DNA of 63,026 nt, counting the filler, from Diploschistes diacapsis (lineage: Eukaryota), in NCBI GenBank assembly GCA_023645945.1. It is 7 parts of 7 records of this genome, joined end to end, with 100 filler letters (N's around TTAATTAATTAA, not from the genome) between each part and the next. Parts side by side here need not be neighbours in the genome. Positions count along the whole stretch, not along the records: positions 36,136 to 45,054 come from JALAIB010001100.1; 6 more parts are not named here. One strand, given 5' to 3'. Positions 34,010 to 39,868 of the stretch are shown here, piece by piece (the stretch's first letter is position 1; every line of letters begins with the position of its first letter). The position numbers and the translations under genes were made by a program. A model generated the notes under the pieces. That model worked only from the letters and a program-made list of their open reading frames with translations, was not told the origin of the DNA and did no database searches.

Positions 34010-36026
34010 ATGTCGAGTTCGGGCATCACAAAGCGTGCCTGCGATGCCTGTCATAGACGCAAGGTGAGGGAGGCTCAACTGCGTTGTTATGACTCCGGGG
34101 CGCCAACTGATTCGGACCGAATAGGTTCGTTGCAATGGAGCCCATCCATGCCAAAATTGCTCGCAGTCCTCCCTAAACTGCACCTTTGACAAACCCCCTC
34201 AAAAGAAGGGACCAAAGGGAAGTCGATCAAAGGTCATCTCAGAGCTTAGAAAATCGCAAGAGCAATCATCGTCTTCCAAACCCAGAGATGGCTTGCATCC
34301 TCTTTCGCCAACGGGGTCGTCAATGCTGGCGAGGCAGCCAGAGGCCCTGCCACCGGACCTCGTCGACGCCTGCATAACGGAATTCTTCGACAAGATGTTT
34401 ACTACCGTTCCGATCCTGCATCGGGGTTGGGTCCAGCAGCGGGCATCCGAAATCACGACTTCTCCGGAGGCTTACTGCGTTATCGGAGCCCTGTGCGTCT
34501 ACATGGTTGCTCTGCTACGCGTTGAAATGCCTGCCCCATCTAATCCGCTCAGTATGGCGAGCACCAGATCGCAAACGAATAGCTTAGGCTTACGTCTTGT
34601 CGAAGACATCAAGCGGATGAGAAACCAGACCGACTACTCCGACAACCCAACTACCGGCACCATCCTCACTTCGTTCTTCCTGTCAGCCGGACTGTTCAAT
34701 CTTGAGCGGCAAAATACAGGGTGGTTCTACTTGCAAGAGGCAATCACGTTCGTGAAGATGATGCGAATCCATCGCGAGGAATCCTACAGCACAGGCGGAC
34801 CACAGGATGTCATGAACAGGCGCTTATTCTGGATCCTTTTCATCTCGGAGAGGTAGCTCTAGAGCTCCCTTGCGTCGGCAGACCGCTGAGATTCAATAGA
34901 GCCCAAGCTTTACACAAACATCGCGACATCCTACTGCACGAAACGATCGATTTTCCACAACCCGATCCAGACGATCCTGTCGACGAACTTGGTATCAAAG
35001 GCCTCACCTGTCTGTACAATATGTTCGGGGCGGTGGACGATAGATTTTCGGAAACCTGGACCAGTCTAAGGTCAGCCACTAGAGTTGCGTGGCCTCAAAA
35101 CACAGCCACATGGCTTGCAGGTCTACAGCAACAACTCACCGAGGCCGTGCCGCTTGATCTCAAGTGTACAAAGATCCAGGAGGCGGACCTGCGAGTGACC
35201 CAACAGTGGCTTCGACTCGTTGTGTGGCAGCTCTCCACCGCCAGCGGCTGTCTATCTTCAGCTGCTCATGATGAATCAATGACCCTTTTGTACCCAATCA
35301 AACTCTCAAAAGAACTAGCCGAGACTCTCCAGTATATCGAGGTGTCGGCGATGGACGTACACGGTATAGGATTGGTAATTATGCTTTGTTGTCTTCTTCG
35401 TGAGTCGCGCTAACAAAACCCTCCTGTAGGTCGAAAAGCTGTTCGACATCGCATACAGTCTTGCAGACATTATAGCCCTCAACGCGGTTGAGACTGGTAC
35501 ATACGAAGCGGGACCTGGCGACCATTTGACTGCCTTCCTGAGCTTCGTATCGACTCTTCGAAACGGCGAAACCAAATTTGTTGGCCTGTTGCAAGCTAAG
35601 ATACGCGAAGTCCTTCCTTCCCTGGCCATTTCTCTAGGCCTTCTACATCCTCCTCCGCCACCGCCTACGCCCTCGTCCACACGCTCGGCAAGTTCGTCAG
35701 GCAATGCTCATCAGCCCCTTATTCCACCACTTGGACGACTCGATGGTACCGAAAGTTCAGTGTCCAGCCCTTACGGAAGCCCGTCAGCAATGACCAGCGC
35801 TCCTCCTCATACGTCTGTACCGATGAGGTTTGCTGTTGGTCGTCAAGTAGCGTCGCCGGCGAGTCCCGATGCTGGGGATGCTGCAACGACAATGAGTATG
35901 GGTGTGTCACGCAGCATCGGCTCGCCCGCTGGCTCGACGTCCGAAAGTGGCGTATCGGAGAATCTGGGAAACGTAAGAGGCGCTAACCCCTATCCATCGA
36001 ACTTTGGATCAGGGCCAGGCTATTAG
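34010..36026 (+). CDS. Zn(II)2Cys6 transcription factor, sugar-utilisation regulator type (MalR/AmyR/InuR-like), 4 exons
   Basis: ACDACHRRK|VRCNGAHPCQNCSQSSLNCTF..KKGPKG across intron 34064-34124. Fungal TF middle region RRLFWILFISER, QEADLRVTQQWL, HGIGL|VEKLFDIA. Confidence 0.9.
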
Positions 36027-36135: not shown

Positions 36136-36689
36136 CTGCTGCGGGCCTTTGCTGGTGGGGGGGGTTTCTCGTCCTTTGGGCTGCCGAGCAAGGGTGCATA
36201 TTGTGTATGGCGGGAGCCATGGGACATGTTTGTCAGTGGGGGAGTTCTTGGGAAAAGGGTGGATCGACGCCTATTAGGCAGACACGGAGGGAAAAAATGC
36301 ATCTATATAGGCCGTGGGTTTATCGGTCTGGTCCCGACGTTGTAAAACCCCAAGGTTTATTAGCAGATACAAGTAGCCTGGGAAATGCTAGATTTTGCAC
36401 AAAGGCCACAAAAATCAGTTCCTTGATGGTCTATAAAACCAAGCCATCCCCTCCCTCCCCTCTTCACGTAGAGCTAAAGCGTTGAAAGGTGTGCCAGTTC
36501 TACATTTGCCATGTTCATGTTCGTGAGAATAGGAATTTAGCTTGCCAGCTTCTTTGGCGCCCCCCCTTTAAGTAAGTGGCTTAAAATGTGGTTGATTTGC
36601 CAAGCTTGTCCATATGTGGTCCAACTGCCACGCAAAGGTAAACCATTCTAGTAAATAGGTATTTGTTGCACATGACAGCTGAACTGATC

Positions 36690-38326
36690 CTGAGAGAACC
36701 CCCCGAGTCACTAGCCTTCAAAGTCCTGCTTAGCCTCGATGCGGGCGAAGAAGATCAGCGTGATGTTGAACTCGAACTTCTTTTTGGGGCGATCGACCAT
36801 TCCCCCAAATGGTCTCGAGCTTTTACGTCGATTTCCTTTCCCCCTGCGTGTCCTTGGCCTTGCTGATCTAGAAGACGGCGAGCATCCGCACGACAAGCGG
36901 TGGAAGCACTCGCGTCCGCAAAGGAGCGACCGGCGTGAAACCTTCGTCCGTAGCCAAATGCGAGATCGTTGGGGGTCAGGCTCGTCGAGTGGCGCCATGT
37001 ACTTTCTCGGGCTTGTAGATGTTAGGGTCCGAGTACTCCTTGGGGTCTTGTAATAAGAACCACCATGGGAGAGGGACCAAATATGCTCCTTCGGGGGATA
37101 ATATAGTCCTGATAGGTGATGTATTCTTCCGATGTCTGGGCTAAGCCCATGGTCCAACGGGGATGCCGCCGCCATGCTTCTTTCACGATGCCGTCCATGT
37201 ATGGTAGATTCTTTGCTGTCTTTGTACCCAGGGAGCCCGATCGCTGCCGACGAAGCGGTCAATCTCCTCCCGTGCCCTGCGCCGCATTTCGGGAAACATT
37301 ACCATGGCAGGAATGAAACTATGTAGAATCGCAACCGTGCTGTCCGACCCCGCAGCGTAGAGACTGACAGCAGTCCACTTAATAGCTTCTTCGTCTTCTG
37401 GTGCCAAGTTGGGGTCATTGCCATTCTTAGCGATGCTCTGTTGCAGTAGGTTGGAGACGTTAGACGGTCGGTGGGGTACTCTTTACCATCTGCTGCCGAA
37501 CGAAAGAGTAGGGAGCTCTGCCGCCGCCTCGTGGACTGCTTTCCGTTCCCGAGCTGTGTGCTTGTACGACATGCTGGGAAAGCCCTCGGGAAGACGGTCG
37601 ATAGCTGGAACGGGGTCAACGAGCTAGGAAAGAGGTACAACCGCGTGGGACAGGTGCTCCATCGCATGTTCGATCACATCAACCACTGGATCGGCCTTCT
37701 TTCGCTTACCAGATAGCCATACGTGATCTGCGAAATGATGGCTGCCGCCAAACTGTGAAATTCAGCGAGCTTGTCAGCTAAGTAGGTACAATTATTGTGT
37801 TCCACAGCGCTGCAGATCTAAGGTACATTTTCAGGTGTCATATCACAGTTATCAGGGTCATTGAACGTCATCGGAACAAACTGAAGGGCTTGCTTCTCTT
37901 GCATGGGTTTGAAACCGGCCGACAAGGACTTGACGCCCACCTGCTTATGCAACAGCTTTCGATGCTTCCGAAGGTGTCGTTATGCTGATGGGTAATCAGG
38001 AAGTTCTCGAAGCCACACAACGACGCAAAATTCAACTGCGGTCTCCGACGTTTTCTGTGACCTTCGCCGCCTCTTTGTGATTAAGATGACGAAGGTAAGG
38101 CCCATCACGATGATGGAACTGATGGGACCATTGGTGTCGTTGTGTTTGAGCGAATGTAGGAATTCCGGTTCCCTTTGGGTGGAGATCCAAGACATTCCCG
38201 ACGATGGATAGAGGCGTTGGCCGGGGAGGAAGGCGAAAGTGTGATTTCCGTTTTGGATGTTGTTAATAGATTAGGAAGTCGATGAAAGCGACGAGACTGG
38301 CTTGGATGAACAGCCAACATACTCAT
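36690..38326 (-). pseudogene. Cytochrome P450 pseudogene, OrdA-like, resembling fumagillin Fma-P450 (Af510)
   Basis: Fragments in shifting frames: LPPRPTPLSIVGNVLDL, PEFLHSLKHNDTNGPISSIIVMG, PQLNFASLCGFENFLITHQ, I-helix AIKWTAVSLYAAGSDST, AREEIDRFVG. The heme motif reads FGYGRRFHAG (Cys lost) near 36925-36960. Many indels and stops. Confidence 0.9.
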
Positions 38327-38417
38327 GATGACAGGTAGAAAGGCCGGTTCTTCCACAAGTTGGAAGCATGGCAGGATCTTCCCAAAACTAGACACCTGTG
38401 TCAAGTCTTTTGAACAA

Positions 38418-38472
38418 TGGTTAGCCAATTTAGTGGACCGTCATTTGAACCAGTGGTTAGCCAATTTAGTGG
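38418..38472 (+). repeat. Short direct duplication TGGTTAGCCAATTTAGTGG x2 in the P450/terpene cyclase intergenic region
   Basis: Identical 19-mers at 38418-38436 and 38454-38472, each preceded by TTTGAAC and containing CCAAT. Confidence 0.85.
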
Positions 38473-38904
38473 TTCCCACGCTTACTCAATTAGGAACATC
38501 AACCTCTGGCTTGCTTTGGGAAAAGGACATCTACCTGCCAGGGTCAAAAGCACCTGCAGTGGCCAGAATAGATACGTGACAGTGAACATTGAGACGCATC
38601 TATGGAATCCAATTAAGGGATGCCTTTGACCAGTAGACATTGTCTAGATTCAAAATTTTGTGCCCTGGAGCTGCATGATCAGCCAGCTGGAATTCGAATG
38701 CTCATCTGACGAAGCAGGTAGAGTCGGAAGTACCCCGTTTGAGCGCAAAGATCCTTCAAGTCCTAACGTAATCGACGGAATGCTCAAGGGTTATGGTTTG
38801 GAGAAGCATGAATATTAGTATCATAGCCTGTCTTGACAGGTTTGCCTCGCCCCTGCATCATCCGTCATGGCAGCTGCTCCATACTAGCTTTGTCGCTTCT
38901 AACC

Positions 38905-39868
38905 ATGAAGAGTATCATCGGGTTGAGCATTCGTCCTTTGGAGTCTTTAAAAAACTTTGTACTTGTTTGGCAAGTCGGATATCCCAGCCGCCGCTTGGCC
39001 TTCGGTGCGCGGTACGCAATACCCCCTCTAGCTTGCCCTTAATTAACGAAGTGGATGCTGTGGCCATTGTGCTCGCCGGGCCCTCAAGCTCCAACTTAAT
39101 CGTAAAGGGCTTTCTTTGGAACCAGTTACACCTGCTTGCTTTTTAGGTATATTCCAGGAATCTTGCTTTGGAACCCACATCCGGATAATGTAACCGAAGG
39201 TCAAGAACCGAGTCCGTACAGCCATTCGTTTATGGAGAAATAACGCATTTGCTCACTCGAAAGGTCAGATCGATGGCGTGGAAGGGGCTAGGATAGCAAA
39301 GCCACATCCCGCTTGCCATCCGGTCGAATGTTCGTCGGAAAACGCACGTGTGCTGTACCGCGTTCTACTCATGTTGACGTGGGCGGCTGCCTTCTATACA
39401 AGAACGGTTCCATGTGTCCCGGTCTGCTCGGTGGCCATCGTGGTATACAGCGAAGGAGGGCTGGCCAAGGTACCCATCGTAAAGGATGTTGTCGGGGCCA
39501 TTGGACTGGCATGCTACTGCTGGGGAACCACCATCATCCTCGGGTATGGTCGTCTCTTGCTCGCGCATCTTGCCTATACTCGGGCCATGCTAATACTAGC
39601 TTCGACGATAGGTCTAATCACACCGTAGCGGCCGCGGCTCGTGGCTAGTGTCGCTTTTGCTCTTGCGGAAGTCTAAAGTGCCTCGGCGGGTGTTTCGAGC
39701 TACGATAAGGACGACTTCGTGTCGTACTGCTGGGACGGCGTAAGTGACATCCATGACAGCCTTCTCAATGTCGGAAAGAAATTGTGTTCACGATTTTTTC
39801 GACAGTTCCGGCTTCTTGGGGCCAACTTATTCCCTATCTTTCCATGGTTGAGAGGCGAAATGCTATAG
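38905..39868 (+). pseudogene. UbiA-type membrane terpene cyclase pseudogene resembling beta-trans-bergamotene synthase Fma-TC (Af520)
   Basis: Fragments LYLFGKSDIPAA, AVAIVLAGP..IVKGFLWNQLHLLAF*, VKN|IDG..IAKPH/LPSGR, AIVVYSEGGLAKVPIVKDVVGAIGLACYCWGTTIIL, SSYDKDDFVSYCW, LLGANLFPIFPWLRGEML*. Frameshifts, premature stops and deletion of the second Asp-rich motif region. Confidence 0.88.

Follow-up and report, generated by a model that had tools for sequence, protein, structure and literature searches.

Remains of a divergent Fma-TC/Fma-P450-type gene pair in the lichen fungus Diploschistes diacapsis

Introduction

Did the lichen-forming fungus Diploschistes diacapsis once hold the enzymes that build the core of fumagillin-type sesquiterpenes, and has it since lost them? 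The question is raised by a 63,026-nucleotide stretch of its assembly (GCA_023645945.1, here G000; 4361 contigs), referred to below as the window, in which an original prediction saw two heavily broken genes lying head to head and took them for relics of Fma-TC, a UbiA-type terpene cyclase, and of its partner Fma-P450. Both relics fall inside those two clades at full support, and we consider it quite likely that the locus – a dead divergent pair – once encoded the enzymes leading through beta-trans-bergamotene to an epoxy-ketone core.

The window joins seven separate contigs of 8884–8941 bases each, with 100-base N-linkers between them. The gene pair lies on one of these, C115 (G000:C115; window 36136–45054; JALAIB010001100.1); since the contigs are separate, nothing outside this interval is shown as a neighbour of the pair.

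The principal point of reference is the fumagillin cluster of Aspergillus fumigatus, where Afu8g00510 and Afu8g00520 stand side by side (Table 1 of PMC7020470); the cited part of the same review covers the chemistry of Fma-TC and Fma-P450 and describes fumagillin-type compounds as covalent MetAP2 inhibitors, used against microsporidia and regarded as anti-angiogenic leads. A second system comes from Metarhizium robertsii: EXU98497 and EXU98498 are listed as mFmaA and mFmaG, counterparts of AfuA_8g00520 and AfuA_8g00510, in Table S1 of PMC9600275, and FmaA and mFmaA both yield beta-trans-bergamotene in yeast according to the cited part of that paper. More broadly, UbiA-type cyclases commonly have a P450 close by: 326 such clusters are reported among 581 genomes analysed (PMC5895447, in the part cited). 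The reference proteins used here are P0157 (Af520), P0004 (EXU98497, mFmaA) and P0139 (EXU98498, mFmaG), mFmaG taking the place of Af510.

A divergent pair hidden from open reading frames

Six-frame translation and frameshift-aware alignment place two pseudogenes on C115, divergent and head to head, ~580 base pairs (bp) apart. Candidate starts – ATG 38905 on the plus strand and ATG 38326 or 38320 on the minus strand – are 578–584 bp apart, in agreement with the arrangement first proposed, and the cyclase stop codon occupies 39866–39868. The elements of the locus, where relevant compared with five metagenome loci (L002–L006), are:

36711..38326, minus strand: Fma-P450 (Af510/FmaG, CYP620F-type) pseudogene, multifunctional P450 family; both ends approximate
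36929..36958, minus strand: haem-binding motif FGYGRRFHAG; codon 36937-36935 is His where L002–L006 have Cys
38327..38904, no strand: divergent intergenic region of ~580 bp, with a 19-bp direct repeat inside
38905..39868, plus strand: Fma-TC (Af520/FmaA) UbiA-type terpene cyclase pseudogene, assigned by alignment, introns and tree
39206..39289, plus strand: what is left of catalytic motif I (NxxxGxxxD), interrupted by intron 3; last Asp replaced by Ala
39544..39600, plus strand: intron 4 remnant and deletion junction near 39583; ~60 codons plus one intron gone, motif II included

The peptides by which the pair had been recognised – KSDIPAA, KGFLWNQLHLL, EGGLA..GAIGLACYCWGTTIIL, DDFVSYCW and PIFPWLRGE on the plus strand, and the P450 peptide PQLNFASLCGFENFLITHQ on the minus strand – are all present at their places in the six-frame translation. 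The genes are, as had been said, invisible as long open reading frames: none of the six stop-to-stop frames scanned from the relic has a Pfam match. With stops read as X, a p450 match emerges in two of the three minus frames (E 3.3e-8 and 0.013), and a UbiA match in none of the three plus frames. In tblastn searches Af520 scored 144 bits and mFmaG 232, whereas the highest scores among 100 triplet-shuffled versions of the stretch were 21.6 and 25.4, respectively.

Adjacent and divergent cyclase and P450 genes are also found in L004, in L005 and on one contig of X4, a second lichen metagenome; the intergenic span is ~606 bp in L005 and ~835 bp in L004, compared with ~580 bp here. The direct repeat between the two genes has a CCAAT core, its copies beginning at 38418 and 38454 (window 38418–38472).

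The cyclase relic

Over codons 16–288 of Af520, 141 of 224 aligned codons are identical (63%) in the frameshift-aware alignment. Introns follow codons 33, 64, 68 and 269, at positions matching L004 and L005, and the donor of the intron after codon 159 is likewise kept as in those loci, while the intron at 183 lies inside a central deletion. In the quick tree (49 rows), the relic sits inside a 36-row Fma-TC clade with a support of 100 in the Shimodaira–Hasegawa-like approximate likelihood ratio test (SH-aLRT) and, within it, in an open 13-row group (SH-aLRT 90) with Af520 and mFmaA, whose clusters also provide its best full-length matches. Basidiomycete homologues and both UbiA-type paralogues of G000 fall outside the clade.

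The gene is nonetheless a family remnant that fails the catalytic-motif tests for a working member. The motifs NxxxG/AxxxD and QDxxDxxxD are defined for UbiA-type cyclases in the cited part of PMC9835599, which also reports that the motif II aspartates are needed in the related Tps1A. In the relic, the final residue of motif I is Ala, not Asp, and the central gap – ~60 codons plus one intron by DNA alignment, under-called by the first alignment model – takes out QDFRDRTAD (Af520 187–195), that is, motif II. Five frameshifts were called, with a one-base gap near 38949 in addition (~6 in total), together with two stops. The deletion may have formed between short repeats, although this is a guess. 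Intron 4 of P0003, a related cyclase discussed below, translates as RAML, like window 39570–39600, and in sample X2 exon-6-like letters run directly into these bases.

The P450 relic

The best full-length relative of the P450 relic is P0011 of A. nanangensis, with 312 of 455 codons identical (69%) in the frameshift-aware alignment; identity to mFmaG is 61% over 484 positions. Across the full-length clade members the range is 61–64%, set against 31–43% for five other OrdA-like P450s (P0236–P0256). Taken together, the values of ~61–69% to members of the two clades, and the trees, do not place the best matches in unrelated UbiA or OrdA-like clades. In the quick P450 tree (65 rows), the relic lies inside a 39-row Fma-P450 clade (SH-aLRT 100), and in the careful tree, built on 30 of those 65 rows, inside a 25-row clade (100/100). 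The careful tree, which carried a long-branch warning on the outgroup, omitted 12 of the clade members, 22 rows of the outgroup and the fungus's own C1580 P450. Both trees group the relic with P0009 and P0010 (94 in the quick tree, 85/87 in the careful one), and in the latter its end branch measures 0.29, compared with 0.065 and 0.13 for these sisters.

The hallmark motifs of P450s are the I-helix AGxxT, ExxR and the haem Cys. The relic keeps the first two, as AGSDST and KEAWR, and has lost the third: the haem motif carries His in place of the Cys ligand present in all five of L002–L006. One intron lies near 37770–37846. The aligned part, 38223–36726, contains 16 frameshifts and two internal stops, although one shift, at the intron edge, is possibly spurious. 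As a control, the same aligner found no breaks in the intact-looking P450s of L002 and L003, and one in that of L004. The P450 at L005:5269-6147, nearly identical to P0023 of Scedosporium, shows an intron-edge shift, a frameshift and a stop, owing either to breakage of the copy or to an error in the contig.

Reality and age of the lesions

Could both genes be intact, with the breaks introduced by sequencing or assembly? Several breaks do fall in short base runs, and the only run holding the whole stretch, the lichen metagenome X1, which shows 0 differences from the window over 4401 bases, perhaps consists of the same reads as the assembly. Simple error hardly explains the stops, the lost haem Cys, the ~60-codon deletion and an excess of amino-acid change: of the residues that are fixed across the intact loci, 17–21% are changed in the relic, versus 4–9% for each comparison locus (L002–L005, each left out in turn), and of the fixed second codon positions 6.1–7.5% versus 2.1–4.2%, on small counts (8/124 with all four loci). 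Long open frames, of 990 and 1616 codons, on other contigs of the window also speak against error. Moreover, X2 and the rock metagenome X3, related samples at ~95–97% identity, are broken in their own ways. An origin of the breaks in error is thus largely refuted and hardly credible; the breaks in both genes are genuine.

The two further samples also bear on the age of the loss. X2 spans the whole region with its flanks (30 of 30 bins); it has 142 substitution places and, within P450 exon 2, a 72-base skip of its own. X3 covers 21 of 30 bins and has its own 166-base skip in the first P450 exon. A G>A change at 36937 in both would give Tyr rather than Cys at the haem-ligand codon, provided that its other two bases agree with the window; over the haem part of the X2 contig, 18 of 20 substitutions are listed, none on the other two codon bases or on the stop at 36868–36870. 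Certain lesions occur in the window alone: the extra base at 38949 is missing from X2, which also retains exon-6-like letters before 39583. Because X2 and X3 are also broken, each with lesions of its own, the loss is likely to predate the split of the samples, and the pattern fits one inactivation before the window's lineage separated from X2 and X3, with neutral decay proceeding separately afterwards.

Small indels make up an unusually large part of the differences in this dead region, with 94 indel rows set against 198 for substitutions when window 36200–40600 is compared with X2 and X3. Repeat-induced point mutation was rejected as a cause of decay: the dinucleotide indices are 0.72/1.20, versus 0.64/1.25 for an intact gene, and the X2 transitions are symmetric. 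Among the runs listed as holders of the stretch, none is an RNA dataset.

Unbroken relatives and the origin of the locus

The original prediction had also suggested that relatives may hold intact copies, and unbroken-looking pairs do occur in metagenome loci, on one X4 contig, in P0003/P0009 and in Teloschistaceae. The closest matches of the relics are P0003 (cyclase, 67%) and P0009 (P450, 75%), Joint Genome Institute (JGI) proteins each listing one 26,396-base contig, so that both probably lie on the same one. P0003, which was called across introns, aligns to the window through introns 2–3 (64% over 70 translated positions) and, because the alignment continues through these introns, is taken to come from a near relative. 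Exon 5, lost in the window, is still present in P0003, and the haem Cys in P0009, within a 365-residue open frame; from the parts of both genes that are seen, the two look unbroken. In X4 the two genes share a 5646-base contig and are ordered as in the window. Of the five metagenome loci, two show the divergent pair with pseurotin-type neighbours, two a P450 beside a MetAP gene, and one is too short to classify.

Fma-TC/Fma-P450 homologues occur in many ascomycete genera, and the module is therefore not rare; the relic is a dead additional member of a known, widespread module. Lichen genera account for 20 of 69 P450 matches (19 Teloschistaceae plus Pyrenula), 68–79% identical to mFmaG and with the haem Cys in 17 of 20, and for 7 of 60 cyclase matches; the placement in Teloschistaceae was checked for Gyalolechia ehrenbergii. 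Four Teloschistaceae lichen genomes carry consecutive cyclase/P450 locus tags: LQ343_003760/1 (Gyalolechia), Q9184_007266/7, Q9168_003150/1 and LQ344_004085/6. The protein pairs concerned are P0022/P0082, P0035/P0092, P0045/P0097 and P0061/P0094. No paper on these four pairs was found in the literature searched.

A separate question is whether C115 records a past pathway of the lichen-former at all, or instead derives from another fungus present in the sample or from a fragment acquired sideways and never used. The sole full holder run is a lichen metagenome, the assembly is split into 4361 contigs, and one 100/99 P450 clade of the careful tree mixes Aspergillus, Diaporthe, Teloschistaceae and Pyrenula, which fits transfer or hidden paralogy. 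The read depth of ~80 in both X1 and X2 and the full coverage of flanks in X2 speak against a foreign source, as does the unbroken-looking sister aligning across introns 2–3, an indication that the locus resided in a living lineage. We therefore regard a foreign or never-used origin as highly improbable, and retain the reading of a pair once at work in this fungus and now dead.

Partner genes in the contig and the genome

No intact copy of either gene was found in G000, where the other cyclase matches reach 30% and 34% and the next P450 35%. Two other UbiA-type terpene-cyclase-like genes, on C682 (L008:1399-2367) and C3974 (L010), lie far outside the Fma-TC clade; that on C682 has an open frame of 323 codons, including a QDLKDQDGD motif. 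C1580 (L037) holds a separate intact-looking cluster, in which a P450 35% identical to mFmaG is accompanied by frames that, on labels read from translations, are O-methyltransferase-like, alcohol-dehydrogenase-like and AflR-like (a regulator).

On C115 itself, which ends ~575 bp past the P450, there is no recognisable polyketide synthase, acyltransferase, O-methyltransferase, dioxygenase, ketoreductase or MetAP gene. On the side of that end, L004 continues into an acyl-CoA ligase gene, and L003 and L006 into a MetAP gene. Reading stops as X in twelve frames produced nothing beyond low-complexity or chance Pfam matches, leaving no further fossil gene recognised on C115, and the flanks had no match at E 1e-3 from any protein fetched. 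A 39-residue tblastx match to L005 near 40128–40244 (E 0.006) was taken as chance, as tblastn with the PsoF-like frame did not repeat it.

Elsewhere in G000, five partner genes were queried with sequences drawn from the comparison loci, and none turned up as a cluster-type copy; the matches were distant or at the level of housekeeping genes. A PsoF-like cluster copy was not found (best match <=40%), nor a PsoB-like one (best match 33%), and the L005 regulator gave no match with a single query that had no positive control. Two matches to the PhyH family lie on other contigs, unlinked to the pair. There is one MetAP1-like gene, 63% identical to the L003 cluster copy. Of the two MetAP2-like genes (C4336 and C1011), neither is shown to be linked to the pair. 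The C1011 gene (L035:955-2143, minus strand) is divergent, matches Peptidase_M24 only, and lies on a 3.5-kilobase contig with no other long gene; it may represent either a residual self-resistance copy or an ordinary paralogue. A propionyl/acetate-CoA ligase on C3809 (best match 61%) was taken as a housekeeping gene, given its unrelated-looking neighbours. Because the assembly is fragmented into 4361 contigs, these blanks are no proof of absence. Of the pathway first proposed as once carried and then lost, the two-gene core and its loss stand, and no other fma gene was traced in G000.

What the pair may have made

When alive, the cyclase would have converted farnesyl diphosphate into beta-trans-bergamotene, and the P450 would have oxidised this to the epoxy-ketone core of fumagillol and ovalicin; the divergent, shared promoter may have co-regulated the two genes. 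This chemistry is likely, read across from characterised members of the two clades. The locus as it now stands gives no product.

Several observations weigh against this reconstruction. The P450 relic lies outside a 17-row inner clade (99/99) that holds mFmaG; P0009, P0010 and A. nanangensis (its placement unresolved), the relic's neighbours outside the inner clade, include no characterised enzyme, and the activity of mFmaG itself was left untested in the cited part of PMC9600275. The exact sister of the cyclase relic lacks support in the tree, where its end branch is long (0.51). As to the lesions, X1 may be the source of the assembly DNA and hence not independent, and their sharing with X2 and X3, resting on 40 of 198 substitution rows, is likely but unproven. 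Finally, no partner gene was traced, on a contig that ends so soon past the P450. Our main reservation about the product is the first of these, the position of the P450 relic outside the mFmaG inner clade.

The same branching would also fit a dead sister of the fumagillin module that split off early and yielded a different sesquiterpenoid, built either on another skeleton or from bergamotene oxidised differently. Other UbiA-type cyclase and P450 clusters do make other sesquiterpenoids (PMC5895447, in the part cited), among them bisabolene (PMC9835599, likewise), and neither an fma tailoring gene nor a self-resistance partner was traced in G000. Yet the cyclase has its best full-length matches in the Af520 and mFmaA clusters, P0009 and P0010 are 74–76% identical to mFmaG, and the bisabolene-making cyclases Tps1A and Tps2A of Antrodia are only 28–36% identical to Fma-TC (cited part of PMC9835599), as against 63% for the relic. 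We judge a different product unlikely, and a bergamotene-derived core remains the preferred reading.

How does the locus compare with the known systems? It shares with A. fumigatus the same two adjacent families, its cyclase belonging to the clade of Af520, and differs in that both genes are dead on C115, with no tailoring or MetAP gene recognised there. Metarhizium robertsii has an adjacent cyclase and CYP620F3, mFmaA and mFmaG, in the mer-f3 12-hydroxy-ovalicin sub-cluster, and the relic cyclase is 66% identical over 221 columns to an M. anisopliae member; the position of the relic P450 and the blanks for PsoF-, PsoB- and regulator-like copies set the two apart, within the queries used. The HEx clusters TC1–13 and the Antrodia Tps1A/Tps2A clusters share with the relic a membrane cyclase with a nearby P450.

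Other parts of the window

Other parts of the window encode an ABC transporter, a cysteine desulfurase, WDR3 and a Zn2Cys6 factor; the Zn2Cys6 gene, at 34125–36026, was rejected as a neighbour of the pair, being on a different contig. At 49167–50423 (plus strand), again on a different contig, one exon encodes a protein that contains a Neprosin domain (PF03080, E 2.7e-42); the Neprosin family occurs mainly in plants and bacteria. A comparison of one gene with its counterpart in Teloschistes exilis gave an identity of only 44–47%, and the clusters to which the window's proteins belong contain no named members. Long TAC/TGC-type microsatellites at 43870–43990 and 45155–45215 give rise to spurious mucin-like Pfam matches.

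Implications for lichen fungi

Decayed secondary-metabolite clusters are common in fungi. The value of this relic is as a pointer: a lineage outside Aspergillus and Metarhizium appears to have held the fumagillol core and to have lost it before close samples diverged. By titles and the starts of abstracts, with most subscription journals outside the scope – and hence as weak evidence of novelty – no report of an Fma-TC/Fma-P450 module in a lichen fungus was found. The main text of a lichen terpene survey, PMC11457338, never mentions UbiA, and fumagillin appears solely in its reference list.

A wider proposal, which we offer tentatively and regard as somewhat doubtful, is that lichen fungi widely carry a working fumagillol-core module missed by surveys of lichen chemistry and terpenes, with which they would make undescribed MetAP2-blocking epoxy-sesquiterpenes against grazers, microbes or the algal partner; the relic and its sisters (P0003/P0009 and P0010) would then represent an early-branching version with a product of its own, lost here. 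The lead lies in the unbroken-looking lichen copies, where undescribed compounds might be sought. Such a branch of the pathway in lichens would offer an inexpensive and direct target for new fumagillin analogues and would make for testable lichen chemical ecology.

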